64,000 nt of DNA from Bacteriovoracaceae bacterium (GCA_048270185.1 JBLWTJ010000001.1:704001-768000), one strand, 5' to 3'. Positions 19,637 through 50,108 are shown, counted from the first letter of the stretch. Translations and numbers: made by a program. The notes: generated by a model not told the origin, from the sequence alone.

Positions 19637-19647
19637 ATTCTTTCCAA

Positions 19648-21552: not shown

Positions 21553-21555
21553 AAA

Positions 21556-22347: not shown

Positions 22348-22368
22348 AAAAATCCTTTTTCTTCCTAA

Positions 22369-27023: not shown

Positions 27024-29858
27024 CTATTCTGCAATCTCAGCAGCGTTTAAGAACTTAGAGTAAATACTCTCTTCAGCAGTGCCTTCTTCTTTCTCTGAAG
27101 CAATTGAGCGCTTAGCTTCTTCTGACTTTTCTTCCTTCTTAACTGGTAATTGTGGTCCCTCTTCTTCTGGCCCTAAAACCCCAGCTAGAACCTCTTCGGC
27201 AGTTTCAGATAGAATGACATTACCATCCTCATCTTGACCGATATAGTATACACGCCCATCTGCTAAGACAACACTATTGCTACCTTCTGAAATGGCCTGT
27301 GCAACAAGCTTCTGATCGCTTTTAGCTATATTATCGCTAATTACACCTGCGCTATAACTACGAGCTCCTGAAGCGCCACTTCCACTTGTTAGGCCAAGTC
27401 CACCTGTAGCACCAAGCTTGTTTATTCCTGCAACACCTGCACCAGCAGAGCTAAATGAAGATCCAGCGGCTGCAGCGGCTCCACCTATTCCTCCAGCAGA
27501 GTTTGAAGCAGTAAAAGTTCGTGCATTATTAGCTTGTCCAGTGTTTCGATTACCACTTCCAGCAAAGCTATTAAAAGAACTTGATGACCTTTTAGTTGGC
27601 GCTTGTACAGCAACGTCAACAGGTGCTTCACTTTCTTCTCTATCTGTATCAGCCTTTTTAGCAATTGAAGTGTTAAGTTGATTAATCTGAGCTTTAAGGG
27701 CCGCGAGTTGTGCCTTTAACTCTTCATTTTGCTTTAATTGTTCAGTCGAGACAGCATTACTTTTTTCATTTTCTTTAATTTCAGCTTCAACTGATTTAAC
27801 TTCGGCTTCAATATCAGACTTTGCTTGAATCATTTTTTCGGTACTCACATTCGGATCAGTCACCATTGATTGAAGACTTTGAGAATCCATTACATTTGAA
27901 TCAGGAAAGTCATTAGCTTGTTGTTGATTATTCATATTATCAAACAAGTTAGCTGCTTCATCAAAATTATAATCGTTTCCTGCTTCAGATGCACCAACAG
28001 CGGCTTGAATTGCTGCATCATCCATTCCACCAAGAGGTGCTCCTGGATTATCTAAATCAACAAGACCGCTATTAGAATGATCATTATTATCGTCTAATTT
28101 TGCAGTTCCCCCTATTGATCCACTTGGAGGAAATATTGCTGAAGAAGAAATAATACTGATATCATTATCAGAAAGATCACCTGCAGTAGCTGCTTTAGAG
28201 TCGATTGCACCATTTTTCCATGCATGACAATAAAGAGCAGAATCTTTTACAGCAACAGTATTATTCTCAGAGAAATAACCTAGTGAATTAACAAAAGTTG
28301 AAAGACTTAGATTATTCTTATAGTACTCATTTGAGTTCTCTGCATCACAAATCTTTTCTAAACGATCAATAGTGTTGTTACAAATTGCTTCATTTTCTCT
28401 ATCAACGATCTCTCTGAAACTATGATTTGCAAGAAAACTTAAGTTACGAAGTGCTCTCTCATCACCATTAACAGCGCCTTGTGAAAGCTTAATAAACTTT
28501 TCAAAAATACCTTTTTTCTTAAAATGATTCGTAAGTTTTCGAAACATCATAAGTCCAAATTGTTCATTCAAATAATTCTCACCTTCTTTTTCAAGCATCT
28601 GCATAGATGAATAATTCTGTTCTGAAGTCCAGTCACTTGTTGACTTTATAACCTTAGCTCTTTCATCATCCATAAATGCGTAATAGTCGTGACTTAAAAC
28701 AGGAGATGTGGATGCATATTCTCTAATTGCTTCTGTATCCAAAGAGAAATCTTTATTCTTTTCAAAATCAAATTGCGCTTTAAAAACATCAACTAAGAAG
28801 ATCTTTGCAAATTTTTGTTGATGTTCTTGCCAGTTTATCGAGGATGCAGTGCTTTCGGCCCACTTCTCACGATCGCCACGAATCTTAGAGAAATATTGCC
28901 CCAGACGATCCTTGGCAAGCTTCTTACGTCTTGCTTTATCAGATGTAAGAAAGGAAAGGTACTTACCTTTTTCATAATCGTCTTCATTAACATCGAAGTT
29001 TTTTTGTATATCAACAAGCTTCAAGGCTTCTGAGTCAAAGCAACCATTAATTCGTTCACTCATTTCATCAATTTTCTTATCTGAACAATTAAAACCAATA
29101 CTTTGACTTCCATTTAAACCATGACGATATCTCTTATCCATCGTTTCAAGATCTTCAAAAAATTTAGCTAAACTATTTGCAAGAATTTGTGGACGAGCGA
29201 TCTTATCAATTTGACGATATATTTCATCAACATCACTTGGTAGCACTAAATCTTTTGGTTTAAAGCGATCAACACAGCCACAGAAGTCAATGATTTTACT
29301 TTCTTCCGTATAGAATCTTCCAGTAGTTTTGAGTTTATTTGTACAATTAAAAATAGCATCGACTACATCATTATTATTTGAGGCAAATTGATTTAACTGC
29401 AAAGTATCTGGTGAAGAACCATATTGGAGCCCAGGACAGATTAATGGTGTATCTACATTAACAAAGTTACTAAACCTCATATTAAACATGACCGTCGAGT
29501 TTTCATCATATTGGTCTTGTAATGTTTCAACAGCTCTTAGATAGAGTCCATTACTTGAAGGTTCATTATAGGTAGGACTTGGACTATACTGTGCGCCACT
29601 CCATTTGCGATTTAAACCTGTTGTGCCAGAACCAATGAGATTTTTAAAGTTACTTGAATACTGATTCGCCCTCTCACTAGAATGCGCCTGAACTTGCTTA
29701 TGCTGATACATATCTTCAATCGTATCACCTGTAGAAATAGCCGCCCAAGCTATATCACCAGCATCCTGTGTAACTAAATCGGCCTGTGCATGAGCACTAA
29801 GAGACAGACTAAAGATAGTCGACAGCGTTAGTAGAATTGAAGTTTTTGATAGTCTCAT
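27024..29858 (-). CDS. Secreted Cys-rich hypothetical protein (RSIAS family)
   Basis: Probable start MRLSKTS at 29858 (GAGGAAG RBS, signal peptide ending AHA); FCGCV; coiled coil; G/A/S linker; C-terminal domain similar to that of 24086-26692. Confidence 0.78.
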   Translation of the reverse strand: MRLSKTSILLTLSTIFSLSLSAHAQADLVTQDAGDIAWAAISTGDTIEDMYQHKQVQAHSSERANQYSSNFKNLIGSGTTGLNRKWSGAQYSPSPTYNEPSSNGLYLRAVETLQDQYDENSTVMFNMRFSNFVNVDTPLICPGLQYGSSPDTLQLNQFASNNNDVVDAIFNCTNKLKTTGRFYTEESKIIDFCGCVDRFKPKDLVLPSDVDEIYRQIDKIARPQILANSLAKFFEDLETMDKRYRHGLNGSQSIGFNCSDKKIDEMSERINGCFDSEALKLVDIQKNFDVNEDDYEKGKYLSFLTSDKARRKKLAKDRLGQYFSKIRGDREKWAESTASSINWQEHQQKFAKIFLVDVFKAQFDFEKNKDFSLDTEAIREYASTSPVLSHDYYAFMDDERAKVIKSTSDWTSEQNYSSMQMLEKEGENYLNEQFGLMMFRKLTNHFKKKGIFEKFIKLSQGAVNGDERALRNLSFLANHSFREIVDRENEAICNNTIDRLEKICDAENSNEYYKNNLSLSTFVNSLGYFSENNTVAVKDSALYCHAWKNGAIDSKAATAGDLSDNDISIISSSAIFPPSGSIGGTAKLDDNNDHSNSGLVDLDNPGAPLGGMDDAAIQAAVGASEAGNDYNFDEAANLFDNMNNQQQANDFPDSNVMDSQSLQSMVTDPNVSTEKMIQAKSDIEAEVKSVEAEIKENEKSNAVSTEQLKQNEELKAQLAALKAQINQLNTSIAKKADTDREESEAPVDVAVQAPTKRSSSSFNSFAGSGNRNTGQANNARTFTASNSAGGIGGAAAAAGSSFSSAGAGVAGINKLGATGGLGLTSGSGASGARSYSAGVISDNIAKSDQKLVAQAISEGSNSVVLADGRVYYIGQDEDGNVILSETAEEVLAGVLGPEEEGPQLPVKKEEKSEEAKRSIASEKEEGTAEESIYSKFLNAAEIAE

Positions 29859-29889
29859 TTCTTCCTCACAAAATAGTAGTCTTCTTAAT

Positions 29890-29916
29890 TTATCGGTTAA
29901 AATCTTAGTTTTCTTA
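29890..29916 (-). promoter_or_regulatory. Sigma28-type promoter
   Basis: Minus strand TAAG-N15-ACCGATAA. Confidence 0.68.
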
Positions 29917-30096
29917 AACTCTCTATATGAACTATTTTCACTTGAAATAGGAAAAAAACGAATAATATTACTCAGATAATACAAAGATAATTTTTGACGT
30001 TACGATAAAGCTTTGAAAAGACAGTGATTGAAGTAGGTGACAATTTGCTGGTCACTATTATTTAGACAAATAAAAGCGCCAATTAATTATTGCAAA

Positions 30097-35530: not shown

Positions 35531-36604
35531 ATGAGCTCAAAAATTTCTCCAGAAAACCCATTAGGGGTACTGGCCATCGACCACCTAGAATTCACTTGTG
35601 ACACACTAGAAACTGCCACAAAAGACCTATTCTACACATTTGGATTTGCAAAAAGTTATGAACTAAAAGAAGACAAGAGAGAACTCTTTTCTCAGGGTCA
35701 GGTTCGTTTTCTACTAACAGCAAAAGAAGATGGTCACTCAAGACAATATTTTAAAGATCACGGTGAAGGTGTCTCAACAATTTCATTCTTAGTTGAAGAT
35801 TGTGAGCATGCTTATAAGACAGCTCTTGAAAGAGGGGCCGAGTCACTACAAGAAGTTATTGTAACAGAGAATGAACACGGTATTTACAAGTCTGCTCGAA
35901 TCAAAGGCTTTGGCGATGTTGCCAATGAGTTTATTGAAAGACCTCGCGCATTCTTTAGACCTGGTTATACAAAACTTGAAGAAGATCCAAAGGCACGCCC
36001 ACTATCTTCTCGTGTTGCACGTATTGACCATTTAACAAATAATGTTCCAAAAGGTGAAATGAAGAAATGGGTTGAGTTCTATGACCGCGTTTATGGGTTT
36101 AAAGTAACTCGCTACTTCGATATTAAAGGATCAAAAACGGGACTTAACTCAGAAGTTGTACAACTTCCAAAAGGTGAAGTTATCATTCCTATTAATGAAC
36201 CAAAAGAAGCTGGTGGAAAAGACCAAATTCAAGAATTCCTCGATCGTCATAACGGCGCTGGAGTTCAGCATATCGCCCTTACTTGTGGAGATATTCTCTC
36301 AACTGTAAAAGATCTAAGAGAGCGTGATATTAAGTTCCTCGACATTCCTCATTCATACTATGAAGGAATTTCAAGTCGTGGAATTAATGTTACAGAAAGC
36401 CTTGAAGATCTTGAAGATCGCCAACTTCTTGTTGATGGCGATGAGGAAGGCTACCTTATCCAAAATTTCACTGACACTTATGTTGGTCCACTATTTTTTG
36501 AATTTATTCAAAGAAAGAACCACAACGGGTTCGGAGAAGGAAATTTCCAGGCCCTCTTTGATGCGATTGAGCGCGATCAGATGGCCAGAGGTTACCTGGA
36601 CTAA
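35531..36604 (+). CDS. hppD: 4-hydroxyphenylpyruvate dioxygenase
   Basis: IDHLTNNV, GVQHIAL, FFEFIQRK, GFGEGNFQALFDAIERDQ. Confidence 0.93.
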   Translation: MSSKISPENPLGVLAIDHLEFTCDTLETATKDLFYTFGFAKSYELKEDKRELFSQGQVRFLLTAKEDGHSRQYFKDHGEGVSTISFLVEDCEHAYKTALERGAESLQEVIVTENEHGIYKSARIKGFGDVANEFIERPRAFFRPGYTKLEEDPKARPLSSRVARIDHLTNNVPKGEMKKWVEFYDRVYGFKVTRYFDIKGSKTGLNSEVVQLPKGEVIIPINEPKEAGGKDQIQEFLDRHNGAGVQHIALTCGDILSTVKDLRERDIKFLDIPHSYYEGISSRGINVTESLEDLEDRQLLVDGDEEGYLIQNFTDTYVGPLFFEFIQRKNHNGFGEGNFQALFDAIERDQMARGYLD

Positions 36605-36976: not shown

Positions 36977-37233
36977 TTCTTCCTCGTTATTTTTAAGTTG
37001 CGGCAATATACATGGAAACGAGTGCGCAATGCGTAAAAATGAATAAATTTCAGCCTAGGCCCAATAAAGGCCATATTAGATATTAGTCTTAACTTATATC
37101 TAAAAATTAACGATCTAAACGGTTGAAAATACGTCAAAAAATGACTCGATAAGCCTATTCAAAGGGCCTGTCCTTTCCCTACAATATTGCTTTAATTAAC
37201 TAAAATTTAAACACAACACAACAAAGGACTCTT

Positions 37234-37545
37234 ATGTATAAGTTAATCGCCATTTATAAAATTCCAAATGACATTGATGCTTGGGAAAAGCACTACTCTG
37301 AAGTCCATACTCCACTAGTTAAAAAGGTTCCAAGCCTAAAAGAAATTCGTCTAAACCGCATCACGGGAACTCCAAGAGGAGCAAGCGATCTACACGTTAT
37401 TGCAGAACTAGTTTTCTCAAATAAAGACGACTTCAAGCTTGGCATGAGTTCTGAAGAAAATATGGCCTGCGGAAAAGATCTCTTTAACTTTGCAAAGGAA
37501 ATCGTATCTGTTCATTTTGCAAAAGAAGAAGTCATTTCACTATAA
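37234..37545 (+). CDS. EthD family protein
   Basis: MYKLIAIYK.P...WEKHYSEVHTPLVKKVP; AELVF; AAGGA RBS. Confidence 0.85.
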   Translation: MYKLIAIYKIPNDIDAWEKHYSEVHTPLVKKVPSLKEIRLNRITGTPRGASDLHVIAELVFSNKDDFKLGMSSEENMACGKDLFNFAKEIVSVHFAKEEVISL

Positions 37546-37556
37546 AGGCCACATTA

Positions 37557-38336
37557 ATGAAGAATATACTTTGTGAATTCCCATATAACGACCACAAGCA
37601 TATTGCACTTGTGAAACTAAACCGTCCGAAGGTTCTAAATGCTCTCTCAACAGATCTTATGAAAGAATTAGTTGAGACTCTTTTCGAGCTAGACGATAAC
37701 CCGGAAGTTCGTGTCATCATACTAACTGGTGATGATCGTGCCTTTGCGGCCGGTGCTGATATTGCCCAAATGGTTGAGGCCACGCCAATCGACCAGATCA
37801 ATGATAATCGCTTCCGTTCATGGCAACAGCTTTCTCAAATTACAAAGCCAATGATTGCGGCCGTTAACGGTTACGCACTTGGAGGCGGATGTGAGCTAGC
37901 GATGCATTGTGATTTTATTATCGCAGGCGATAGCGCTAAATTTGGGCAACCTGAAATTAGTATTGGAACTACGCCAGGAGCAGGTGGAACTCAACGCCTA
38001 ACTCGTGCCATTGGAAAATCAAAGGCCATGATGCTTTGTATGACGGGTGAAATGTTTGGAGCCCAACAAGCACAGAGCTGGGGACTTGTTGCAAAGGTTG
38101 TCCCAAGTACAACCCTACTTCAAGAAACTTTTGAAGTTGCAAAAGAGATTGCTAATAGGGCCCCTGTCGCCATCAAGTTAATTAAAGAATCAGTGAATAA
38201 AGCATTTGAAATGTCACTATCCGACGGTGTTGATTTTGAAAGACGCAATTTCTATTTAACATTTGCAAGTAGCGACCAAAAAGAAGGCATGCGTGCTTTC
38301 TTAGAGAAGCGCTCACCAGAGTATAAAGGAAATTAA
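37557..38336 (+). CDS. paaF: Enoyl-CoA hydratase (2,3-dehydroadipyl-CoA hydratase-like)
   Basis: FAAGADI, GGGCELAM, FGQPEI..G..PGAGGTQRL (both catalytic Glu); paa context. Confidence 0.75.
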   Translation: MKNILCEFPYNDHKHIALVKLNRPKVLNALSTDLMKELVETLFELDDNPEVRVIILTGDDRAFAAGADIAQMVEATPIDQINDNRFRSWQQLSQITKPMIAAVNGYALGGGCELAMHCDFIIAGDSAKFGQPEISIGTTPGAGGTQRLTRAIGKSKAMMLCMTGEMFGAQQAQSWGLVAKVVPSTTLLQETFEVAKEIANRAPVAIKLIKESVNKAFEMSLSDGVDFERRNFYLTFASSDQKEGMRAFLEKRSPEYKGN

Positions 38337-38337
38337 G

Positions 38338-39129
38338 ATGTCTAACGAATTTAGAAATATCATAGTTGAAAAAGAAGCCTTCACAGGTGTGATAACAATT
38401 AACCGCGCTGAAGTTTACGGTGCCTTAACACGTGAAGCGAAGTTTGAAATCATCAAGGCCTTAAGAGACCTTAACCGCGACAATGAAGTGGGCTGTATTA
38501 TCCTAGCTTCAAACGGAAAAGGATTTTGTACAGGACAAGATTTAAATGATCGCACAGTACAAGCTGGAGATAAGCCCGTTGATCTAGGAGTGACGCTAGC
38601 AACAGAGTGGAATCCATTAGTTAATGCCATCAAAGAATCAAAGAAATTAGTTATTGGAGCAGTTGAAGGTGTTGTGGCAGGAGCTGGTGTTTCAGTTGCT
38701 CTTGCTTGTGACCTTGTGATTGCAAAACCTGGTATTAAATTTGTTTCAGGTTTTTCTAAACTTGGTCTTTGCCCTGATGCTGGTTCAACTTTTACTTTCA
38801 CAAGGGCACTTGGAGAGAAGAAGGCCATGGAATTTTTCATCCTTGGCAATCCACTAACAAGTGAAGAAATGGAAGGTGCTGGTCTAATTAATAAAGTAAG
38901 TGAAGAAGCATTAGCTGATGCTAAGGCATGGGCCGCCCAGATTAATGCCATGGCACCACTTGCCGTTAAGGCCATCAAAGAAAATATTCAAGTTGCTGTT
39001 GATTCAACGGCAAAGCAATCAATGGATCGCGAAACTGCATACCAGAGATTCTTAGGAAATAGTGATGATTATAAAGAAGGACTAAGTGCCTTCTTTGAAA
39101 AGAGACAAGCAAAATTTTTAGGAAAATAA
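38338..39129 (+). CDS. paaG: Ring-1,2-epoxyphenylacetyl-CoA isomerase-like crotonase
   Basis: FCTGQDL, AGAGVSVALACD, GLCPDAG (PaaG-type Asp). Confidence 0.78.
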   Translation: MSNEFRNIIVEKEAFTGVITINRAEVYGALTREAKFEIIKALRDLNRDNEVGCIILASNGKGFCTGQDLNDRTVQAGDKPVDLGVTLATEWNPLVNAIKESKKLVIGAVEGVVAGAGVSVALACDLVIAKPGIKFVSGFSKLGLCPDAGSTFTFTRALGEKKAMEFFILGNPLTSEEMEGAGLINKVSEEALADAKAWAAQINAMAPLAVKAIKENIQVAVDSTAKQSMDRETAYQRFLGNSDDYKEGLSAFFEKRQAKFLGK

Positions 39130-39140
39130 AAGGAGGCCAT

Positions 39141-39950
39141 ATGGCAGCAAGAGAATACACTCAAGAAGAACTACAATTATTTGACGACATCGCAAACGGT
39201 AAGAAGTTTGATAAAGGTGATGAGCTTCCTCCTCTATACAAGAAAGCTCTAAAGAACCTTCTTTGGATGCAACACGATTCAGAATACTCAGGTGCACTTG
39301 GATATGCACCTTGGATTGAAAAAGCACCAACGATGCAAGAGAAAGTTGTTGTTGCACAAATTGTAAAAGATGAAATGAGACACGCTTCAGTTTGTTACCG
39401 ACTACTTAAGGGAATTGGTGAAGATGTTGACTCACATATTGAATCAAGTGAACTTGGTTTTAAAATGCCAGAAGATAAAGCACAAATTGGATTCCAAAGA
39501 CTAAAAGAAGATTACCGAGTGAATATCTTCTATTACGGAATTAACTACTGGGAAGATTTCATTCTCTTTAACTTTCTAATGGATAGAGCTGCTGGCCACC
39601 AATTAGAAGATACTCTTGATTCAAGCTACCTACCATGGAAGAAAGGAATCGAAGGTATCTATAAAGAAGAAATTATGCACCTTGCTCACGGAGATAAGTG
39701 GATCAAGATCTTAGCAGATGGTGAAAACAAAGAATTCCTTCAGGAAAGACTTGAGCTATGGTGGCCAAGAGTAATGAACGTTTTTGGATCAACAAAAGGT
39801 CGCTCGAATGATCTTTATGTAAAGCTTGGCCTAAAGAAACGTAACAACCAAGTTGTTCGTGATGTTTTCGTAAAAGAAGTACAAGAGATGTGCGATAAAG
39901 CAGGTCTTGTTCTTCCAGAGTATGACGAAGACGCACAACCAAAAAGGTAA
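39141..39950 (+). CDS. PaaA-like di-iron (ferritin-like) aryl-CoA epoxidase subunit
   Basis: DSEYSG, WIEKAPT, DEMRH, LMDRAA, EEIMH, WWPR..FG; GGAGG RBS. Confidence 0.8.
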   Translation: MAAREYTQEELQLFDDIANGKKFDKGDELPPLYKKALKNLLWMQHDSEYSGALGYAPWIEKAPTMQEKVVVAQIVKDEMRHASVCYRLLKGIGEDVDSHIESSELGFKMPEDKAQIGFQRLKEDYRVNIFYYGINYWEDFILFNFLMDRAAGHQLEDTLDSSYLPWKKGIEGIYKEEIMHLAHGDKWIKILADGENKEFLQERLELWWPRVMNVFGSTKGRSNDLYVKLGLKKRNNQVVRDVFVKEVQEMCDKAGLVLPEYDEDAQPKR

Positions 39951-39958
39951 TTAATTAA

Positions 39959-40822
39959 ATGAATATAAAAAGTGTACTAGTCATCGGTGCGGGAACCATG
40001 GGGCGAGGAATCGCTCAATGGTTCTCACAACACGGTGTTAGAGTTGAGCTTGTTGATCAACATCTTGAAATGGCCCAGGCCAGTGGTGATCTGATTTATA
40101 GCTCTTGGGATAAATTAGCGAGTAAGGGAAAATTTGATGCGCAAGAGATTGCGGCTTTCAAAAAGAACTTAAATATCGTCGAGATGGAAAAACATCAAAT
40201 TGATCACGACCTCGTGATTGAGGCCATTGTTGAAAATCTTGAAATTAAGAAGAAAGTCTTTGCTCGTCTTGATGAGATAATGAGCAAGGAGACAATCCTA
40301 AGTTCAAACACTTCTTCAATCCCGATTACAAAGATGGCAAAAGATCTTTCAAAAGATCGTCGTGAAAGCTTTCTTGGACTGCACTTCTTTAATCCAGCAA
40401 CAATTATGAAGCTTGTTGAGATTATTGAAACACCATGGAGTAAGAAAGAGACGGCCCATGCACTTTATGATTGGTTTGAGCGCTTTGGAAAGAAGCCGGC
40501 CCTTTGTAAGGACTCTCCTGGTTTTATCGTTAACCGCGTGGCCAGAAATTACTACGGTGAATCTTTGCACCGCCTAGAAAATTATAATCATGAACAAATT
40601 TCAGAAATCGATCGTGTCATGACAAATGTTGGTGGATTTCGCATGGGACCATTTGAATTAATGGACCTTATTGGAATTGACGTCAACTACGATGTGACTC
40701 AATCAGTTTGGAATGCTTACTATAATGAGCCACGCTTTAGACCTCACAAGATTCAACGAGAAATGGTTGATAGCGGTCGTATTGGCCGCAAAGTAAAAGA
40801 GGGGTTCTACCGTTATGAATAA
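39959..40822 (+). CDS. paaH: 3-hydroxyacyl-CoA dehydrogenase (PaaH N-terminal part)
   Basis: GAGTMGRGIA, EAIVENL, SNTSS, GLHFFNPA, GFIVNR, GPFELMDLIG. Confidence 0.82.
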   Translation: MNIKSVLVIGAGTMGRGIAQWFSQHGVRVELVDQHLEMAQASGDLIYSSWDKLASKGKFDAQEIAAFKKNLNIVEMEKHQIDHDLVIEAIVENLEIKKKVFARLDEIMSKETILSSNTSSIPITKMAKDLSKDRRESFLGLHFFNPATIMKLVEIIETPWSKKETAHALYDWFERFGKKPALCKDSPGFIVNRVARNYYGESLHRLENYNHEQISEIDRVMTNVGGFRMGPFELMDLIGIDVNYDVTQSVWNAYYNEPRFRPHKIQREMVDSGRIGRKVKEGFYRYE

Positions 40823-41474
40823 GACAATCTTAATTAGTGAAAACCATCCTCTTTTAAAAAACGTTCAAGGTAGTGACTTCCCTTCTATTGTTGTTGATCC
40901 ATTTAGCATCAATACTCTTGATGGAGTGGACTTTGATGAAACTGATCTATTAATTGATCTAACTTCATTTGATCGCAACTCAAAGATGGATCTTTATGAG
41001 CATCTTGATCAAGTCTATGAGGGGCCAATTGTTTCAGACCTTTCAATTAACTGGGGTGAATACCTAGTCTCACAATATGAAAATGTTGTTGGTGCCGTAG
41101 CAGCTGCCTTCTACTCACCAAAGAGTTGTTTTGAACTCTACTTAAAAGACGACACTTTTGAGCAAGCAATTTTTGAGGTCTTTAAGAAACTAGGTTTTGA
41201 TCTTGAATTAGTTGAGCACGTTGGCATTGGATTTACTTACCCACGTGTAATTTCTCAAATTATTAATGAAGCGTACTTTGCTAAAGAAGAAAAACTAGCA
41301 AGTAATGCTGATATTGATAAGGCCATGATGTTTGGGGTGAACTATCCTTTAGGTCCATTTGAATGGGCGCAAAAAATCGGCCTTGAAAAAATCATTATGC
41401 TTCTTGAAGAACTTCGAGAAGTAACAGGAGATGCACGTTACCGTCCATCTCGCCTACTAAGGATGAATTTATGA
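40815..41474 (+). CDS. 3-hydroxyacyl-CoA dehydrogenase C-terminal-domain protein (PaaH second half)
   Basis: RVISQIINEA, DIDKAMMFGVNYPLGPFEW, RYRPSRLL; no NAD-binding GxGxxG. Confidence 0.78.
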   Translation: MNKTILISENHPLLKNVQGSDFPSIVVDPFSINTLDGVDFDETDLLIDLTSFDRNSKMDLYEHLDQVYEGPIVSDLSINWGEYLVSQYENVVGAVAAAFYSPKSCFELYLKDDTFEQAIFEVFKKLGFDLELVEHVGIGFTYPRVISQIINEAYFAKEEKLASNADIDKAMMFGVNYPLGPFEWAQKIGLEKIIMLLEELREVTGDARYRPSRLLRMNL

Positions 41475-42682
41475 GCTTAACTTTTAAAGATGCCTATATT
41501 GTTTATGCTAAGAGAACACCAATTGGTAAATTAGGTGGTTCAATGTCTCACCTTCGCGTCGATGACATGATGGCAACTCTTCTGCGCGACTTCTCTCAAA
41601 ACTTTGACTTTGATATGAAAGAAATCGACGATGTGATTGTTGGTTGCGCCAATCAGGCCGGAGAAGATAACAGAAACCTTGCCCGTATGGCGGCCTTATT
41701 AGCAGGTCTTCCATACGAAGTCCCAGGGGTTACACTTAACCGCCTCTGTGCTTCTTCACTAGATGCCATTATCGATGGTTGGTCACGAATCAACTTAGGA
41801 GTCGCCGATTGTCTTTTAATCGGTGGAGCAGAGAGTATGACTCGCGCGCCACTGGTTATTTCAAAAGGCTCAACTCCATTTGGCCGTGACTCACAAATGT
41901 TTGATACGACTTTTGGTTGGCGTTTTCCAAATAAGAAGATGGAAGAAATGTTTCCACTTCTTGGTATGGGACAAACGGCAGAAGAAGTTGTGACTAAACT
42001 TGGTATCTCTCGTGAAGACCAAGATCAATTCGCACTTAACTCTCACCTTAAGTCATGTGCGGCATGGGAGAAGGGAGAATTTAATGACGAGGTTCTACCG
42101 GTTGAAATTAAACTTAGAAAAGAAACCCTAAATATCACACGTGATGAAGGGCCACGTGCTAACTCAAGCCTAGAAGCTCTTAGTGGACTTCGCCCTGTCT
42201 TTAAAAAAGACGGAAGTGTGACAGCAGGTAACTCATCAATGATGAATGATGGAGCCGCTTGCGTTGCTCTTGTTAGTGAAGACTTCTTAAAGCGTCATAA
42301 CCTAACTCCTCTAGTAAAGCTTACAGGAGCTGGTGTGCGCGGAATTCACCCAAGTATTATGGGACTTGGTCCAGTTGAATCGACAAAGAGACTCATGGAG
42401 AAATTTGGTAAGAAGATCACAGATTTTGATGTGGTTGAACTTAACGAGGCCTTCGCTTCTCAGTCCCTTGGTTGTATGCGTGAGCTTGGAATTGATGATT
42501 CAAAAGTAAATCTTAGAGGTGGCGCCATCTCTCTTGGTCACCCTCTTGGTGGTTCAGGAGCAAGAATTGTGACGACTCTGACTCATATTATGAAAGATAA
42601 TGCCAACCTTAAGCAAGGTCTTGCTTCAATGTGTGTTGGTGTTGGTCAAGGTGTCTCACTTTCAGTAGAAAATTGTAAATAG
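41471..42682 (+). CDS. paaJ: Beta-ketoadipyl-CoA-type thiolase
   Basis: GCANQAGEDNRN, NRLCASS, NEAFA, GHPLG, MCVGVGQG. Confidence 0.85.
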   Translation: MSLTFKDAYIVYAKRTPIGKLGGSMSHLRVDDMMATLLRDFSQNFDFDMKEIDDVIVGCANQAGEDNRNLARMAALLAGLPYEVPGVTLNRLCASSLDAIIDGWSRINLGVADCLLIGGAESMTRAPLVISKGSTPFGRDSQMFDTTFGWRFPNKKMEEMFPLLGMGQTAEEVVTKLGISREDQDQFALNSHLKSCAAWEKGEFNDEVLPVEIKLRKETLNITRDEGPRANSSLEALSGLRPVFKKDGSVTAGNSSMMNDGAACVALVSEDFLKRHNLTPLVKLTGAGVRGIHPSIMGLGPVESTKRLMEKFGKKITDFDVVELNEAFASQSLGCMRELGIDDSKVNLRGGAISLGHPLGGSGARIVTTLTHIMKDNANLKQGLASMCVGVGQGVSLSVENCK

Positions 42683-42691
42683 GAGAATAAA

Positions 42692-44182
42692 ATGGAAGAA
42701 ATTAAATTATACATAAACGGAGAAATCCGCCCTTCTTCAACTGGTGAAATGGTTGATTCAATCGACCCATCTAATGGGGAGCTAGTTGCCAAGGTTCATA
42801 TTCCAAGTGAAGCGGATCTTGAAGAAGCGGTACAAGCGGCCAAGTCTGCTTTCTATAGTAAAGAGTGGCGTGATTTCACACCGGCCAAACGCTCAGAGAT
42901 CTTACTAAAAATTTCGGAGCTTCTTAAAGAAAGAAAGCGCGACTTCATCACACAAGAAATTAAAGATAGTGGCTCAACTTTTAGAAAAGCAGCTGCTGAT
43001 ATTCACAACTCAATTAGCTTCTTTAAAGTAATGAGTAAGGTAACGGCTAAATTTAATTTTGAAGCCGTTGATGAAGCTGCAACACGTGCAGGCTTTTCAA
43101 AGAATACTCGTCGTTATGAACCAGTTGGTGTTTGTGCTCAAATTATCCCATGGAACCTACCTCTTCAGATGGCAGCATGGAAGATCGGGCCGATTCTTGC
43201 AACGGGTTGTACAACAGTTCTAAAATCTGCTGTAGAAACTCCTGTGACAGCAATGATGCTTGCTCAAGTCTTAATCGATGCTGGAGTACCTAAGGGTGTT
43301 GTTAATATCGTAACAGGTGGAGCAAAAGAAGGGGCCTACCTTGTTAATCACAAGGATATTTCAAAAGTGGCCTTCACTGGATCAACGGCCGTTGGGCGTG
43401 AGATTCAAAAGCAATCTTCTCAAACTCTAAAGAATACAACAATGGAGCTTGGTGGAAAATCTGCCAATATCATCCTAGATGATGCTGATCTTGATATCGC
43501 TGTTGATGGATCACTCTTTGCCTTCCTTTATCACTCAGGTCAAGCTTGTACATCGGGTACTCGCCTACTTGTTCAAGAAGGAATCTATGATGAGTTTATG
43601 ACAAAATTCAAAGAGCGTATTGCTCAGGTTCCACTAGGGCCTACGGCCGAGAAGACAACAGGACTTGGGCCAGTTGTTAGTGAGAAGCAATTTAATACTG
43701 TTATGAATTATATCAATAAAACGAAAGAAGAAGGTGCAACTCTTATCGCAGGTGGTGAAAGAGCGACAGATAATGGACTTGATAAGGGATTCTACGTAAA
43801 GCCTACGGCCTTTGAAATCACGCCTGATAATACAATTTGGCATGAAGAAATCTTCGGCCCGGTTGTTGGGATCACAAAGTTTAAAACTGAAGAAGATGCC
43901 ATTGCCATGGCCAATAATTCAATCTACGGACTAGCAGGAGCTGTTTGGTCAAAGAATGAAGAACGCGCCCTAAATCTTGCTAAAGATATTGAAGCTGGAA
44001 CTGTGTGGATTAACGAATACCACCTACTAAACCCAGGAATGCCTTTTGGTGGTTTCAAGCAATCAGGAATTGGACGTGAAATGGGTGAAGAAGGAATCAA
44101 GGCCTACCTTGAAGTGAAACACCTATGGGAATCAGACTGCAATACTCGTGAAGGGAAAATGTGGTTTGATGCTATTTTCTAA
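42692..44182 (+). CDS. NAD(P)-dependent aldehyde dehydrogenase (no MaoC domain)
   Basis: IIPWNLP, FTGSTAVG, ELGGKS, GQACTSG, EEIFGPV, PFGGFKQSG. Confidence 0.9.
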   Translation: MEEIKLYINGEIRPSSTGEMVDSIDPSNGELVAKVHIPSEADLEEAVQAAKSAFYSKEWRDFTPAKRSEILLKISELLKERKRDFITQEIKDSGSTFRKAAADIHNSISFFKVMSKVTAKFNFEAVDEAATRAGFSKNTRRYEPVGVCAQIIPWNLPLQMAAWKIGPILATGCTTVLKSAVETPVTAMMLAQVLIDAGVPKGVVNIVTGGAKEGAYLVNHKDISKVAFTGSTAVGREIQKQSSQTLKNTTMELGGKSANIILDDADLDIAVDGSLFAFLYHSGQACTSGTRLLVQEGIYDEFMTKFKERIAQVPLGPTAEKTTGLGPVVSEKQFNTVMNYINKTKEEGATLIAGGERATDNGLDKGFYVKPTAFEITPDNTIWHEEIFGPVVGITKFKTEEDAIAMANNSIYGLAGAVWSKNEERALNLAKDIEAGTVWINEYHLLNPGMPFGGFKQSGIGREMGEEGIKAYLEVKHLWESDCNTREGKMWFDAIF

Positions 44183-44196
44183 AAACTAAGTAAAAG

Positions 44197-44228
44197 AAAA
44201 GCCTTCGAAAGAAGGCTTTTTTATTTTT
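44197..44228. terminator. Bidirectional intrinsic terminator
   Basis: AAAAGCCTTC-GAAA-GAAGGCTTTT with T run, between convergent genes. Confidence 0.85.
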
Positions 44229-45422
44229 CTAGAATTTCTTATAAAGAACATTTAATGCGACATTGCCGTAATCATCGTAGATCGTAAATGTACGGCCCTG
44301 GTTCGTTGTCCCAAATTTAACTTCAACAAATGTATCACTACAATTAATCGCTGAAGTTCCGTAGTAGAACTCATATGTCGGGCGAATGCTTGGAGTGAAT
44401 TTACAGATTTTAATAATTGGGCGGCCGTAGTAATTGAACTCATACTCAAGAGCGTAGAATTCACGGTATTGATAGCTTCCGTCATTAAGTGCTGATAAGC
44501 GAGAAAAGACGTGCGAAATATTGCGACTTGAAGAAAATCTAAAGAGCCCGCTTAACTCTTGGCTGAAGTCTGAAGTCCCAGGCCTAAAAACTGGAGTATC
44601 ACAGTAACTGGTTTCATCATACGAGATATTGTGCATATTAAATTTCTTAAGTGCACATTTAATTGGTGTTGCAAGTGTTAGCGTTGAACCCTTGCGGCCA
44701 CGCATGAAACGACGGAAAGTAATATCCTCTGTAATCTCATCGTGAACAAGCCCTAGAACATCCCCACTAATTGAATCAACCACCACTGCACCATGGGAGA
44801 TATTTCTGATATTACAATTTGTCATAGCAACAACTGATGCATCGTCGTTATTTGTTGGAAATAAGATATTATTACGAGTACGACGACAATTGTAGCGCGT
44901 ATGCTCAAGAGTATAACCCGTGTTATCGTGCTTTTTGGCGACATACCAAAGGCGGTAGTAATTATACTCAGTCATTCTTGCATCAGAGATTGGAGCAAAA
45001 TCTCCATCAATCCCATCTTCTAATTCAACAACTGAGAACTCACCATTATAAGCTTCGGCAGCACGACTATCACTTTCCAATTGCTTGATATTGGCGCACT
45101 TAACAACCTTACCACCTACAGTCTTCGCAGCAATAGTAGAACAAGTAGCCGCTTCAAGACAATTTGACGGCACAACCATCTCAGTCGAGCTGGCCATATA
45201 TCCCGTACAATACTTAGGAAAGTCACCAGCACTATTAATGGCAAGGACAAATGAATTTGTACACTCAGCTTCATCCGCACAATCAAATTTGACATTCGTC
45301 GATGTCTCTAACTTTGATACAATTCTCTTGATTGGACCTGAAGCATTATCTCCTTCAGGGGCACCACAAGAAATCATCAAAGCAGAAAAAAGAATGAGTG
45401 TTGTTATTCTTGCTAAAAGCAA
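44229..45422 (-). CDS. Lipoprotein with degenerate trypsin-like fold
   Basis: Lipobox MISC; CTGYM.....VVPSNC and C...ISHG.VV...G.VLGLVH echo S1 protease motifs; TTG start with AGGAG. Confidence 0.6.
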   Translation of the reverse strand: MLLARITTLILFSALMISCGAPEGDNASGPIKRIVSKLETSTNVKFDCADEAECTNSFVLAINSAGDFPKYCTGYMASSTEMVVPSNCLEAATCSTIAAKTVGGKVVKCANIKQLESDSRAAEAYNGEFSVVELEDGIDGDFAPISDARMTEYNYYRLWYVAKKHDNTGYTLEHTRYNCRRTRNNILFPTNNDDASVVAMTNCNIRNISHGAVVVDSISGDVLGLVHDEITEDITFRRFMRGRKGSTLTLATPIKCALKKFNMHNISYDETSYCDTPVFRPGTSDFSQELSGLFRFSSSRNISHVFSRLSALNDGSYQYREFYALEYEFNYYGRPIIKICKFTPSIRPTYEFYYGTSAINCSDTFVEVKFGTTNQGRTFTIYDDYGNVALNVLYKKF

Positions 45423-46497: not shown

Positions 46498-47331
46498 TTA
46501 ACCAATTAATTTAAGGGCCGCTGCACCTTGAGCATTCGACTGAGCAAGAACTGAAGAACCAGCATTAACAAGAATGTCGTTCTTAGCTTTCTTAGCAGTC
46601 TCAGCAGCGTAGTCAGTGTCTCTGATACGTGAGTTAGCAGAGCTTAAGTTTTCAGAACTGATCTGTAGGTTGTTAATTGTAGAGTTTAGTCTATTTTGCT
46701 TAGCACCTAGTTCAGCTCTTTGACCTGCGATATTTTCAATAGCAGAGTCAAGGTTAGCAAGAGCGTTTTGAGCACCTTCTTTAGAAGCTACTTGAAGATC
46801 TGCTACACCTAATGCCTCAAGACCAGAACTTAGTACGTTTGTATCGAACTGAATTCTATCTTGGAAGTCATCATTATTAATACCGATTTGGATATCAAAC
46901 TTTTCACCAGATCCAGTAAGAAGTTTCTTACCGTTGAACTCAGTAACTTCTGAAATTCTTTGGATCTCTTGCTTAAGGTTTTGATACTCAAGATCAGTAA
47001 ATCCACGTTCAGTATCACCTACTGTGTCTGAAGCTGATTGGATTGATAGTTCTCTTAGTCTTACTAAGATGTTTGATACTTCGTTCAGACCACCTTCTGC
47101 AATCTGAATCATTGAAATACCGTCATTAGCGTTTCTTTCTGCTTGGTTTGTCGATCTAATTTGAGACTTTAACTTCTCAGAAATTGCTAAACCTGCAGCA
47201 TCGTCTGCTGAACGTACAATTCTTGTACCAGATGAAAGCTTTTCTAAAGATTTAGTTTGTGCTTGATTACTTAGACCTAACGACCTTTGTGCTGAAAGTG
47301 ACGTTACATTTGTGTTAATACGCATACCCAT
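46498..47331 (-). CDS. fliC: Flagellin (short, 277 aa)
   Basis: RINTNV, LSSGTRI..ADDAAGLAISE, QRAELGAKQNRL, SRIRDTDYA. Confidence 0.95.
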   Translation of the reverse strand: MGMRINTNVTSLSAQRSLGLSNQAQTKSLEKLSSGTRIVRSADDAAGLAISEKLKSQIRSTNQAERNANDGISMIQIAEGGLNEVSNILVRLRELSIQSASDTVGDTERGFTDLEYQNLKQEIQRISEVTEFNGKKLLTGSGEKFDIQIGINNDDFQDRIQFDTNVLSSGLEALGVADLQVASKEGAQNALANLDSAIENIAGQRAELGAKQNRLNSTINNLQISSENLSSANSRIRDTDYAAETAKKAKNDILVNAGSSVLAQSNAQGAAALKLIG

Positions 47332-47561: not shown

Positions 47562-50108
47562 ATGGAAGATGGTAAACCGCTCATATTTCTAGAGCCCCTC
47601 ACTGATAGCGTTAAGAAGCTTAAAGAAGCCCTTGAAGCAACGGCCGAACAGGACGGAATAGAGATCTATGAAGTCGAAAATCCAGAGGAATACAATCAAC
47701 TAATCCCTACAATTGGCCAATCACTAACTATTGCATGCTCTCCTAAAAAGACAGCACAATGTATTCAACCATTAAGAAAATTCATTTTAAAGAATAACGT
47801 CAAAGTACTTCTTATTAATAATAAGAATATTCCACCTAAGACTTTAGAGAAGTTCAGAAAGATAGGACTTACTGAATATATACAGGAACCAGTTCCTCCT
47901 AAAACCCTACTCTATAAAGTTAGTCTTATTCTACGCTCCTTGAAAAAAGCTGAAGAAGAGCATGATATGGAGTTTAAAACAGGTGAAGAGCGACAGGTCA
48001 TCGAAAATGATTATGAAGACAAGAAAGAGAGTTCTCGCTTTGCTAACGGTGGAAAACTTGAAGGTAAAGTTCATAAGCAAGAACATATAAAAGATAATAA
48101 AGATGTCTTTGACGATAATATGCTCTTTAATGATGGTGGCGAAGCGACTCAAGAAGATCCACATAAGAATACCAAAGAGTACAATGCACGCCAAAAACAA
48201 GATTCCTCCACAAGTGGAAGGTTAACTGGCCAAATTTCCAATCAGAAGAAGTATGGTGATGAAAATGATGACTTTGATGATGACGAAGATCTATTTGGTT
48301 CACTTGATAATATAAAGAAGTCTCAAAATAAAGCAGACAAGCTTGGAGGTCACCTTCAAGGTAGTGTTTCTAAAGCGCAAGAACAAGAAGACAATGATGA
48401 CTTTGATGCAGATGATCTCTTTAAGAGTCTCGATCAGAATACTAAGTCATCTTACAAAGAGGAAGACAAAGGTGGAAACCTTAGAGGTGATCTTGCTTCA
48501 ATAGAAAAAGAAGAGTCTTCTAAAGAAGAAGATGTTGATGACCTCTTTGCTAGCCTCGATAAGAACTCTAAGTCATCATATAAAGAAGAAGACAAGGGTG
48601 GAAAACTAAAGGGTAATGTTGAGACAACAAAACGCGAAGAGCTCGAAGAAGATGACTTTGATGAAGACCTCTTTGCTAGTCTTGATAACGTTAAAAAGTC
48701 TTCATATAAAGATGCACCTCAAGCAGGGGTTCTAAAAGGTGATGTCTCTCCTACTATTGATGCTGTGGAAGATGAAAAAGATAAGGACGAAGACCTATTT
48801 GCAAGCCTTGATGATATTAAGAAATCGTCTTTTCAAGATAAACAGTCAGCTCCTTTAAAGGGAGATGTGACAGCAAATGATGAAACATCTCCTACTCAAA
48901 AAGATCGAGAAGCACAAGAAGACCTCCTTGCTGGACTCGATGCCGTAAAAAAGAATAAGGCCCCAACAGGTATTGATGATATTGACCCCGAGCTCTTAGA
49001 AGATATGGACTTTCTTCAAGAAGAGTCTCAAAAATCAAATCTTTCAGGTGATCATAGTAACGAATTAATTGATAATGAAAAGGGCCTAGAAAGGAAAGGG
49101 AATGAAAAGACGGATGCAAAATCTCGCTCCGATCAAGACCTATTCGATTCCCTGGCCAAGCACGCTTCCGAAGAAGCTCCTCGCCCGGCCAATGAAGAAC
49201 TCTCTCTAAGAAGACCTGAGGATGAAGCGGACACACCTGATGAAAATCGTGGTACGTCCGATACAATCACATATGAGAAGAAAGGTGACCTTGGAGAGCA
49301 GACAATTGACTATCGAAATCTCGATAAACAACCAGTCTATGAAGGTGGAACTAAAGAAAAGCTTGAAATAAAAATCACTGATGGACAAGCTGCTCAAGTA
49401 AAGAAAGAGCAAGAAGGCTTCGAACATCAAGAATCATCATTCGAAGATGATGATCTCTTTGATTTCGATTTTGATGACGACGACGATGAATACGATGCAG
49501 AGGAAGAAGCACGAGCTCAAGCTGAAGCGCAAAGAGAAGCAGAAGAAGAGGCCCGCGAAGAACAAGAACTTGAAGAGGCCCTCAATTCTATAATTATCCC
49601 AGATCCAAAAGATATGGACTTCTTTATTGAAGCTACAAATAAAGTTATTCTTGGTGATAGCATCAAACAAATGACAAGTGATTATATCAATAGCTTCTGT
49701 AGTGGAACACTCGTTGTTTATAACCTTGAAAATGAATGTATTCTAGGCAATGAGATTGTTGATGAGCGTTTCGAGGCAATTAAAAATGTTTTAAAGATAA
49801 AGCGCAAACCAAGTTGGAACGATACAAGCTTTCGAAGTGAACTTCTATACTACCACTGCCCTATTATTGAAAACGGTCGATATCATAACTTCATCATCTT
49901 TATGACAACACCTCAAGATATCAATCGCGACAAAGCTATACCAGCACGTATTGAGCTATGTATGACGGCCCTAAAGGGAAGCTATCTAAATGGGGATGAT
50001 CGAAGCACCACAAAAATTGAAACGAAAAAATCGGCCATTAATAATGTGAAAGATTCGGTTTCAGGCCTATTTAAAGGCTTCTTTGGAAAGAAAGAAAAAA
50101 AGGCATAG
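47562..50108 (+). CDS. Pseudo-receiver domain protein with long acidic repeat region and C-terminal globular domain
   Basis: N-terminal ~125 aa fit a REC pattern (KIGLTEYIQEPV..KTLLYKV) without the canonical Asp; D/E-rich repeats. Confidence 0.7.
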   Translation: MEDGKPLIFLEPLTDSVKKLKEALEATAEQDGIEIYEVENPEEYNQLIPTIGQSLTIACSPKKTAQCIQPLRKFILKNNVKVLLINNKNIPPKTLEKFRKIGLTEYIQEPVPPKTLLYKVSLILRSLKKAEEEHDMEFKTGEERQVIENDYEDKKESSRFANGGKLEGKVHKQEHIKDNKDVFDDNMLFNDGGEATQEDPHKNTKEYNARQKQDSSTSGRLTGQISNQKKYGDENDDFDDDEDLFGSLDNIKKSQNKADKLGGHLQGSVSKAQEQEDNDDFDADDLFKSLDQNTKSSYKEEDKGGNLRGDLASIEKEESSKEEDVDDLFASLDKNSKSSYKEEDKGGKLKGNVETTKREELEEDDFDEDLFASLDNVKKSSYKDAPQAGVLKGDVSPTIDAVEDEKDKDEDLFASLDDIKKSSFQDKQSAPLKGDVTANDETSPTQKDREAQEDLLAGLDAVKKNKAPTGIDDIDPELLEDMDFLQEESQKSNLSGDHSNELIDNEKGLERKGNEKTDAKSRSDQDLFDSLAKHASEEAPRPANEELSLRRPEDEADTPDENRGTSDTITYEKKGDLGEQTIDYRNLDKQPVYEGGTKEKLEIKITDGQAAQVKKEQEGFEHQESSFEDDDLFDFDFDDDDDEYDAEEEARAQAEAQREAEEEAREEQELEEALNSIIIPDPKDMDFFIEATNKVILGDSIKQMTSDYINSFCSGTLVVYNLENECILGNEIVDERFEAIKNVLKIKRKPSWNDTSFRSELLYYHCPIIENGRYHNFIIFMTTPQDINRDKAIPARIELCMTALKGSYLNGDDRSTTKIETKKSAINNVKDSVSGLFKGFFGKKEKKA
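48270..48960 (+). repeat. 126-bp (42-aa) tandem repeat, at least 6 units
   Basis: DLF/DLL codons at 48288, 48414, 48540, 48666, 48792, 48921; unit DLFxSLDxxxKSSYKxxxxGGxLxGxV. Confidence 0.85.

Follow-up and report, generated by a model that had tools for sequence, protein, structure and literature searches.

A phenylacetate-type gene cluster in a marine predatory bacterium, in which one small di-iron protein apparently replaces the multi-subunit ring-oxidizing enzyme

Can the ring of an aromatic coenzyme A (CoA) thioester be oxidized by a single PaaA-like protein? Current understanding gives phenylacetyl-CoA epoxidase four or five required subunits, and surveys recognize the pathway by PaaA together with PaaC. 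The question is raised by a stretch of 64,000 nucleotides from a Bacteriovoracaceae bacterium (GCA_048270185.1, JBLWTJ010000001.1, 704001 to 768000; hereafter the window, with positions counted from its first nucleotide), in which eight plus-strand open reading frames (ORFs), spaced 1 to 11 nucleotides apart or overlapping by 4 to 8 nucleotides, span positions 37234 to 44182 (Table 1). They code for an EthD-family protein, two crotonase-type enzymes (ECH1 and ECH2, the latter PaaG-like), a 269-amino-acid PaaA-like protein, the two pieces of a split PaaH-like 3-hydroxyacyl-CoA dehydrogenase, a PaaJ-like thiolase, and an aldehyde dehydrogenase (ALDH). Close homologs are recorded under Halobacteriovorax or Bacteriovorax, which places the host among the predators of that family. 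This marine predatory bacterium apparently carries a phenylacetate-type cluster in which the multi-subunit ring-oxidizing enzyme has been replaced by one small di-iron protein. The reading that we prefer, and to which we give an even chance of being right, is that this protein works alone, probably as a homodimer, as a PaaA-family oxygenase of phenylacetyl-CoA or a similar compound, fed here by a neighboring enzyme of the indolepyruvate:ferredoxin oxidoreductase (IOR) family.

A preliminary description of the window had given the operon order as EthD-paaF-paaG-'paaA'-paaH(N)-paaH(C)-paaJ-ALDH, closed by a strong terminator and lacking paaB, paaC, paaD, paaE, paaK, paaZ, paaI, and paaX. The ORF positions proved exact, Pfam and NCBIfam models agree in order, and a hairpin with a T run follows the last gene. 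The names paaF, paaG, paaH, and paaJ denote likeness only, as all operon proteins fall under the corresponding NCBIfam equivalog cut-offs. The absences hold for the whole genome (3.35 Mb in 30 contigs, 95.9% complete), which has a single PF05138 (PaaA_PaaC) match and, in profile searches, no match to PaaB, PaaD, PaaX, or the MaoC hydratase domain. The remaining models find nothing in the genome above their cut-offs, the best matches scoring 26.7 bits for PaaK (cut-off, 646), 97.5 bits for PaaE (420.8), 44 bits for PaaI (119), and 122 bits for PaaZ (563), the last being the operon's own ALDH. The best PaaE-model match lies just outside the window by an Rrf2-type regulator; it was read by eye as a putative flavohemoglobin and was not taken as PaaE.

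The same pattern extends to relatives. PaaB was found in none of the 61 genomes of the family that were searched, and PF05138 exceeds its cut-off in 23 of them, as a single copy in 22. Nor was PaaB found in any of the 34 genomes of other phyla that carry the clade described below; PF05138 is single in 24 of the 34, and the extra copies in the others are never adjacent, the nearest being 48 kb away. The preliminary description had named paaB, paaC, or paaE elsewhere in the genome, or co-occurring in relatives, as what would speak against a single-gene enzyme, and neither was found.

Is the 269-amino-acid protein likely to be an enzyme at all? It contains the motifs DSE (residues 46 to 48), DEMRH (77 to 81), MDRAA (147 to 151), and EEIMH (176 to 180), and its residues E48, E78, H81, D148, E177, and H180 align to E42, E72, H75, D126, E155, and H158 of Escherichia coli PaaA, the iron ligands listed in the available text of PMC4498308; the full PaaA-like ligand set first attributed to it is thus present. 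All 14 rows of its clade have E, E, H, D, E, H at the six ligand positions, and the full set is found in 45 of the 58 rows of the whole alignment. The protein exceeds the PF05138 gathering threshold and, in a confident AlphaFold model (pLDDT, 96.1), takes the ferritin-like PaaA fold. The top Foldseek matches are PaaA chains (TM 0.78 to 0.80; E value, 2e-11), followed by PDB entry 4MUD, PaaC, BoxB, and aldehyde-deformylating oxygenase. The ratio of nonsynonymous to synonymous substitution (dN/dS) is 0.05 to 0.07 against three genomes of its own genus, indicating that the gene is under strong purifying selection, and amino acid identity stays between 61 and 93% in 24 family genomes, drawn from 11 genera apart from its own. 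With its ligands conserved, dN/dS low, the model confident, and PaaA the closest fold, the protein is likely catalytic. We consider it very improbable that it is the relic of a decayed paa cluster or a PaaC-like noncatalytic scaffold; the score far under the PaaA cut-off would fit either, and PaaC is a precedent for the loss of catalysis in this fold, but neither accords with the low dN/dS, the identity kept across genera, the ligand set retained by every clade member, or a place in the operon that is conserved across several phyla.

By three features that define PaaA (the equivalog score, the partner subunits, and the position in the tree), this PF05138 member fails to qualify as one. It scores 97.6 bits with the PaaA model TIGR02156 and so misses the cut-off of 280, whereas true PaaA representatives score 283 to 417 bits; the PaaC model gives 55 bits and the BoxB model TIGR03225 gives 18.5 (cut-off, 499). 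Among 1.84 billion representative proteins, 555 relatives are found at an E value of 0.001 or lower and only 17 at 1e-30 or lower. A profile scan covered 80 of 117 listed representatives of 220 to 400 amino acids: nine reach the PaaA cut-off, none reaches that of PaaC or BoxB, and the rest are short PaaA-like proteins outside the curated families. In a quick maximum-likelihood tree (IQ-TREE; 58 rows, without PaaC rows, BoxB rows, or an outgroup), the 14 Bacteriovoracaceae rows form one clade (SH-aLRT, 100) and six true PaaA rows lie on a separate branch (98). The phylogenetic check suggested beforehand thus separates the protein from true PaaA, and model scores and Foldseek put PaaA nearer to it than PaaC or BoxB. 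Within the phylum, 24 of the 35 genomes examined from its own family gave a match to the protein, as did none of 165 from 27 other families.

The closest characterized counterpart is the PaaABC(D)E complex of E. coli and Klebsiella (PDB 3PVR/3PW1 and 4IIT), with which the locus shares PF05138, the fold, the six ligands, and PaaG-, PaaF-, PaaH-, and PaaJ-like neighbors. The 269-amino-acid protein is about 23% identical to PaaA and about 40 residues shorter, besides forming its own clade; the alignment covers residues 5 to 246 of the 311 in PaaA, and the C-terminal part of PaaA is absent. Two further positions differ, PaaA E49 and K68 corresponding to Y55 and I74 in the alignment; these form the 'lysine bridge' proposed for electron transfer from PaaE (PMC4498308, available text). 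The complex itself has no PaaB, PaaC, or PaaD counterpart in this genome, PaaE and PaaK are represented only by matches under the cut-off, and self-pairing is predicted in place of the pairing with PaaC.

In a two-copy complex prediction the protein scores 0.78 and the best of three controls scores 0.00, so that the structure prediction proposed in the preliminary description passes its controls, although the pass is to be read as likeness and not as proof of binding because like complexes have already been solved. The homodimer runs agree in 100% of contacts with a partner pLDDT of at least 88, and, among proteins of solved structure, 20 of 30 one-chain pairs and 1 of 23 single chains reach the mark applied. 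The predicted interface (residues 52 to 106) is on the helices bearing E48 and E78/H81. According to the available text of PMC9493321, PaaA and PaaC meet in a four-helix bundle built from helices B and C, and the model thus puts the second copy where PaaC sits. Judged from these models, the protein probably pairs with itself through helices B and C, the surface by which PaaA binds PaaC.

Another PaaA-like protein that is short and stands alone is SSO1313 of Sulfolobus solfataricus (PDB 4MUD, a structural-genomics entry named 'phenylacetic acid degradation-like protein'). Among PDB sequences it matches best (1.6e-16), and it gives a Foldseek TM of 0.88 normalized on the target, but it is only about 24% identical, has 235 amino acids, and belongs to a different branch as judged by a presumed relative. 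That relative, row P0145, which by its length may stand for SSO1313, lies far from the Bacteriovoracaceae clade in the tree, and its residues at the ligand positions are E, A, H, D, K, H. No paper on the function of SSO1313 was found in the literature searched by title.

The arrangement is not unique to the window. A scan of species-representative genomes yielded at least 527 loci with relatives, of which the best 80 were analyzed (high-GC loci being annotated by tblastn with the window proteins and by Pfam searches of all long ORFs). These best 80 loci are from Elusimicrobiota (30), Methylomirabilota/Rokubacteria (24), and Sericytochromatia/Vampirovibrionales/Melainabacteria (13), with the remainder in Chloroflexota, Acidobacteriota, Verrucomicrobiota, Binatota, Deferrimicrobiaceae, and other bacteria. 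Of the 74 loci with enough flank, 40 have an ECH gene immediately before the PaaA-like gene; a dehydrogenase gene is directly downstream in 24 of 71. In Vampirovibrionales the order is EthD, three crotonases, oxygenase, split dehydrogenase, thiolase, and ALDH. A PaaK-family ligase gene is directly upstream in 23 of the 80 loci, including 20 of the 24 from Methylomirabilota/Rokubacteria. The gene thus belongs to a widespread, strongly conserved clade that occurs without PaaB and is usually the sole PF05138 gene of its genome. We note that a PaaK-type ligase, PaaG/F/H/J-like genes, and links to IOR, each seen in different lineages, point to an aryl-acetyl-CoA substrate and Paa-like processing.

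Individual loci of this set show other arrangements. A conserved fusion of ECH2 to the oxygenase was considered and dismissed, since a single locus among 40 joins the two in one reading frame; this is an Elusimicrobiota locus (L077:8164-9795) with a PaaG-like crotonase and the PaaA-like protein in a single 544-amino-acid frame, possibly a natural fusion. A Blastocatellia locus (L039:8992-15882) presents a different aromatic context, the clade member lying with genes for a LysR regulator, a DHDPS-family protein, an ALDH, a LigB-type extradiol dioxygenase, and a thiolase. In a Methylomirabilota locus (L044:12840-14236), encapsulated-ferritin and encapsulin shell genes are about 3 kb downstream of a PaaK-like/PaaA-like pair, probably by coincidence.

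What might supply the substrate in the window? A fused IOR-family gene is upstream of the operon and divergent from it, with a gene for 4-hydroxyphenylpyruvate dioxygenase (HPPD) between the two. IOR-type enzymes convert arylpyruvates directly to aryl-acetyl-CoA and also yield reduced ferredoxin; PaaK would therefore not be needed, which accounts for its absence here. Of the 12 relatives' loci, 11 have IOR next to the operon, the other being truncated at a contig end, and 9 have HPPD. An IOR ortholog is present in all 23 family genomes that have the oxygenase and in 8 of 38 that lack it (two of the eight being 29% identical paralogs), a co-occurrence that is a pattern rather than a statistical test, as the relatives are not independent. 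A search of the genome gave no phenylalanine hydroxylase (PF00351), a gap that such a route would fill, and its tyrosine branch comprises HPPD, fumarylacetoacetase, and a divergent homogentisate-dioxygenase-like gene. Fumarylacetoacetase, a 428-amino-acid ORF, and a flavin reductase lie in a row at G000:C2:607931-610672 (L031); the ORF matches the homogentisate-dioxygenase N-domain only weakly (62.8 bits with the hmgA model; cut-off, 511) and may be a divergent homogentisate ring-cleavage enzyme.

In the route that we propose, phenylalanine would be transaminated to the arylpyruvate, which the IOR-family enzyme, and not PaaK, would convert to phenylacetyl-CoA or a close aryl-acetyl-CoA. The operon would then serve CoA-dependent, oxygen-using ring degradation of the Paa type, with the stand-alone PaaA-family oxygenase replacing PaaABC(D)E and ferredoxin reduced by IOR as a plausible donor of its two electrons. 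The oxygenase product would next be handled by ECH2 as the isomerase, by ECH1, by the two-piece dehydrogenase, by the thiolase and, in operons that have one, by the ALDH. An arylpyruvate (indolepyruvate):ferredoxin oxidoreductase route to phenylacetyl-CoA is known from anaerobic phenylalanine degradation, and the IOR-family enzyme beside the operon would similarly give the CoA thioester without a ligase; here, however, it is a fused protein of 1,143 amino acids, under the NCBIfam cut-offs, in an aerobe. The pairing of IOR with an oxygen-dependent ring oxygenase is proposed as new.

The lower-pathway genes fit this route in part. ECH2, the oxygenase, both dehydrogenase pieces, and the thiolase form a core kept in the 12 relatives' loci. 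The best PDB match of ECH2 is E. coli PaaG (4fzw_C, 2.7e-52; next match, 7e-43), and those of ECH1 are mitochondrial crotonases (8e-81), with PaaF at 2e-66. The thiolase is nearest to 3-oxoadipyl-CoA thiolases, and the dehydrogenase has the two-part architecture of PaaH, the 287-amino-acid protein, a full enzyme in itself, being equivalent to the functional N-terminal half and the 219-amino-acid piece to the degenerate C-terminal half of a PaaH-type enzyme (as in E. coli PaaH). This split, in which the stop of one gene overlaps the start of the next, recurs in all 12 relatives and in one Vampirovibrionales locus (L083:9803-11477), and so it is not a frameshift. EthD and ALDH covary among 13 family operons, with both in 7, neither in 5, and one locus cut, which suggests that they form a module; in three of the five operons that lack them (L019, L024, and L029), the first crotonase gene directly adjoins HPPD, which attaches HPPD to the operon. 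The operon's ALDH is a possible stand-in for the dehydrogenase domain of PaaZ, and where it is missing either another ALDH serves or the chemistry departs from the canonical semialdehyde route.

These gaps raise the alternative that the lone di-iron protein hydroxylates, epoxidizes, or desaturates some other CoA thioester (benzoyl-CoA-like, 4-hydroxyphenylacetyl-CoA, indoleacetyl-CoA, or an aliphatic one from IOR), with the rest of the operon completing a beta-oxidation-like cycle. We regard this as unlikely, although it has several points in its favor. The protein is outside the PaaA equivalog and in a separate clade; the hydratase, isomerase, dehydrogenase, and thiolase core is what a beta-oxidation cycle lacking an acyl-CoA dehydrogenase would need; ALDH is dispensable in five relatives, and no ring-opening hydrolase was found; and the Acidobacteria locus L039 has a clade member beside LigB and DHDPS-family genes. 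The Box-type benzoyl-CoA route also uses an epoxidase, crotonase-family enzymes, ALDH, and 3-oxoadipyl-CoA thiolase. BoxAB, the benzoyl-CoA 2,3-epoxidase, is a di-iron epoxidase of an aromatic CoA thioester whose product goes through such crotonase-family, ALDH, and thiolase steps, and BoxB is a weaker fold match (Foldseek E value, 3e-5). BoxB nevertheless has about 470 amino acids against 269 here, and its model score falls far below the cut-off. An aromatic, Paa-like substrate is further favored by the PaaK-family ligase as direct neighbor in 23 of 80 loci, by ECH2 being nearest to PaaG and the dehydrogenase being of the PaaH-type two-part build, and by IOR and HPPD, neighbors that belong to aromatic amino acid breakdown; ordinary acyl-CoA dehydrogenase, crotonase, and Hbd genes are present elsewhere in the genome.

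It could also be that the PaaA-like protein is a catalytic subunit whose partners are unrelated to PaaB, PaaC, and PaaE and are encoded elsewhere or in the operon itself, with EthD as an example. Known PaaA needs PaaB, PaaC, and PaaE (PMC4498308 and PMC9493321, available text), di-iron oxygenases all need an electron supply and the operon encodes none, and EthD is frequent, being present in 7 of 13 family operons and in 7 of 13 Sericytochromatia/Vampirovibrionales loci. Yet the operons share no conserved gene that lacks an assignment, five relatives are without EthD, and the Methylomirabilota unit consists of ligase and oxygenase alone; we therefore find hidden partners decidedly unlikely. Candidates for a shared accessory gene were rejected in turn. 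The inserts in relatives' loci are phosphate-type ABC transporters, a porin, TauE, MCP, and unknowns that differ per locus, with nothing in common between loci, and an NDH-2-like gene after the thiolase is present in L019 only and absent from this genome.

Against a stand-alone phenylacetyl-CoA oxygenase stand a number of observations, which we gather here. All Paa-type assignments are under the NCBIfam equivalog cut-offs. In the available text of PMC4498308 and PMC9493321, PaaA, PaaB, PaaC, and PaaE are all reported to be required, and E. coli PaaA alone is reported to be insoluble. Relatives' loci share no reductase or ferredoxin gene close to the operon, and small 2Fe-2S-like and 2x[4Fe-4S]-like ORFs found elsewhere in the genome by motif scans have no link to it; with no such gene nearby, the coupling of IOR to the oxygenase by ferredoxin is a guess. 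IOR is in none of the 80 loci of other phyla and in only 11 of the 34 genomes. A semialdehyde route of the Paa type needs an ALDH, and this gene is absent from 6 of the 12 relatives' loci; five of those genomes have no ortholog of it elsewhere (four have 31 to 40% identical paralogs and one has no match). No ring-opening oxepin-CoA hydrolase can be assigned in the genome: there is no MaoC domain, three crotonases score 184, 187, and 175 bits with the oxepin_alt model (cut-off, 300), and the other crotonase paralogs are MenB, leucine-pathway, and short-chain beta-oxidation enzymes. Vampirovibrionales operons, in contrast, carry a third, BadI/MenB/Oah-like crotonase. Such a third ring-hydrolase crotonase was sought in this genome and rejected, the nearest proteins being ECH1, MenB, and the beta-oxidation crotonase, each 32% identical. 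Finally, the homodimer pass may reflect the prediction model's memory of PaaA-PaaC or 4MUD.

How the first interpretation fared follows from both sides. The preliminary description saw a streamlined route built on a single-gene aryl-CoA epoxidase, and every computational check that it proposed came out favorably; the whole-genome profile search, for one, found no PaaB, PaaD, or second PF05138 protein and only matches under the cut-off to PaaE, PaaK, and PaaZ. Its epoxidase reading stands in part, as no electron donor or ring-opening hydrolase was identified and ALDH and EthD are missing from 5 of 12 relatives' operons. As to gene content, it was right about the absent partner genes and missed the adjoining IOR-family gene and HPPD; it also missed the wide range of the clade. 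A more ambitious version of the stand-alone oxygenase reading can be put forward only tentatively, and we think it rather doubtful: that the clade is a widespread, self-sufficient, homodimeric aryl-acetyl-CoA epoxidase working without PaaB, PaaC, PaaD, or a dedicated PaaE, and driven in Bacteriovoracaceae by IOR-reduced ferredoxin, so that electrons from making phenylacetyl-CoA would be spent on epoxidizing it.

Table 1. Features of the operon and of its upstream neighbors in the window, with the model scores behind each assignment
Feature	Position	Strand	Basis
EthD-family protein, 103 amino acids	37234..37545	+	TIGR02118, 77 bits (above cut-off, 30.5)
ECH1, crotonase-type enoyl-CoA hydratase (PaaF-like role)	37557..38336	+	ECH_1, 283 bits
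ECH2, PaaG-like enoyl-CoA isomerase	38338..39129	+	Pfam ECH_1; PaaG is best NCBIfam model, 207.7 bits (under cut-off, 345)
Stand-alone PaaA-family di-iron protein, 269 amino acids	39141..39950	+	PF05138 (PaaA_PaaC), 113.4 bits (above cut-off, 28.5)
3-Hydroxyacyl-CoA dehydrogenase, 287 amino acids	39959..40822	+	Pfam 3HCDH_N and 3HCDH; PRK08268, 366 bits (model positions 6-288 of 507); PaaH model, 303 bits
Second piece of split PaaH-like enzyme, 219 amino acids	40815..41474	+	Pfam 3HCDH; PRK08268 positions 390-494, PaaH positions 394-493
PaaJ/PcaF-like thiolase (3-oxoadipyl-CoA-thiolase-like)	41471..42682	+	Pfam thiolase; PRK09050, 492 bits (cut-off, 605); pcaF model, 485 bits
NAD(P)-dependent ALDH	42692..44182	+	Aldedh, 544 bits
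Promoter-like TTCAAA-16-TACAAT upstream of EthD gene	37158..37185	+	Consensus scan; weak, as the region has fewer such sites than its own shuffles
Intrinsic-terminator-like hairpin	44195..44222	+	12-bp stem, 4-nucleotide loop, T run; two-way, also reads on the minus strand for the convergent gene
Fused IOR-family protein, 1,143 amino acids	31431..34862	-	NF009589, 329 bits; IOR_alpha, 310 bits; IOR_beta, 64 bits; all under cut-offs
NUDIX and metallo-beta-lactamase-fold fusion, 445 amino acids	30097..31434	-	Pfam NUDIX and Lactamase_B; overlaps IOR gene end by 4 nucleotides
HPPD (tyrosine catabolism)	35531..36604	+	TIGR01263, 361 bits (above cut-off, 277)

Several other genes of the window deserve mention. 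The gene for a NUDIX/metallo-beta-lactamase fusion, judging by its layout, is co-transcribed with the IOR gene and lies near IOR in 5 of the 12 relatives' loci (L019, L022, L024, L029, and L030). Its function is possibly CoA or thioester housekeeping, and we speculate that it could hydrolyze stray CoA thioesters or CoA. A leucine-catabolism cluster on the minus strand (17907-23982; crotonase, HMG-CoA lyase, methylcrotonyl-CoA carboxylase biotin subunit, second crotonase, and carboxyltransferase subunit) makes the window rich in amino acid breakdown genes. On the far side of the operon, a flagellin gene (46498-47331, minus strand) is a neighbor kept in 8 of the 12 relatives' loci. ORFs at 24086-26692 (868 amino acids), 27024-29984 (986 amino acids), 44229-45422 (397 amino acids), and 47562-50108 (848 amino acids) have no Pfam match, and the first three have no NCBIfam match either.

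No paper on this arrangement was found in the literature searched, which did not extend to subscription journals. The main text of a 2026 survey (PMC13186573) makes no mention of Bdellovibrio, Bacteriovora*, Oligoflexia, Deltaproteobacteria, or Halobacteriovorax, although its supplementary tables may list such genomes. If our reading of the operon is correct, the pathway's range would extend to Bacteriovoracaceae, Elusimicrobiota, Vampirovibrionales/Sericytochromatia, Methylomirabilota, and others missed by surveys based on PaaA and PaaC. The one-gene form would show how small an aromatic-CoA epoxidase can be and would offer a far simpler enzyme for studies of structure and mechanism and for the engineering of oxepin or tropone precursors. 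It would also explain how predators living on the amino acids of their prey use phenylalanine when no phenylalanine hydroxylase is found. Should the IOR-driven version hold, these bacteria would have a complete, redox-balanced phenylalanine route without PaaABCDEK, with variants in predatory bacteria and in several poorly known phyla.

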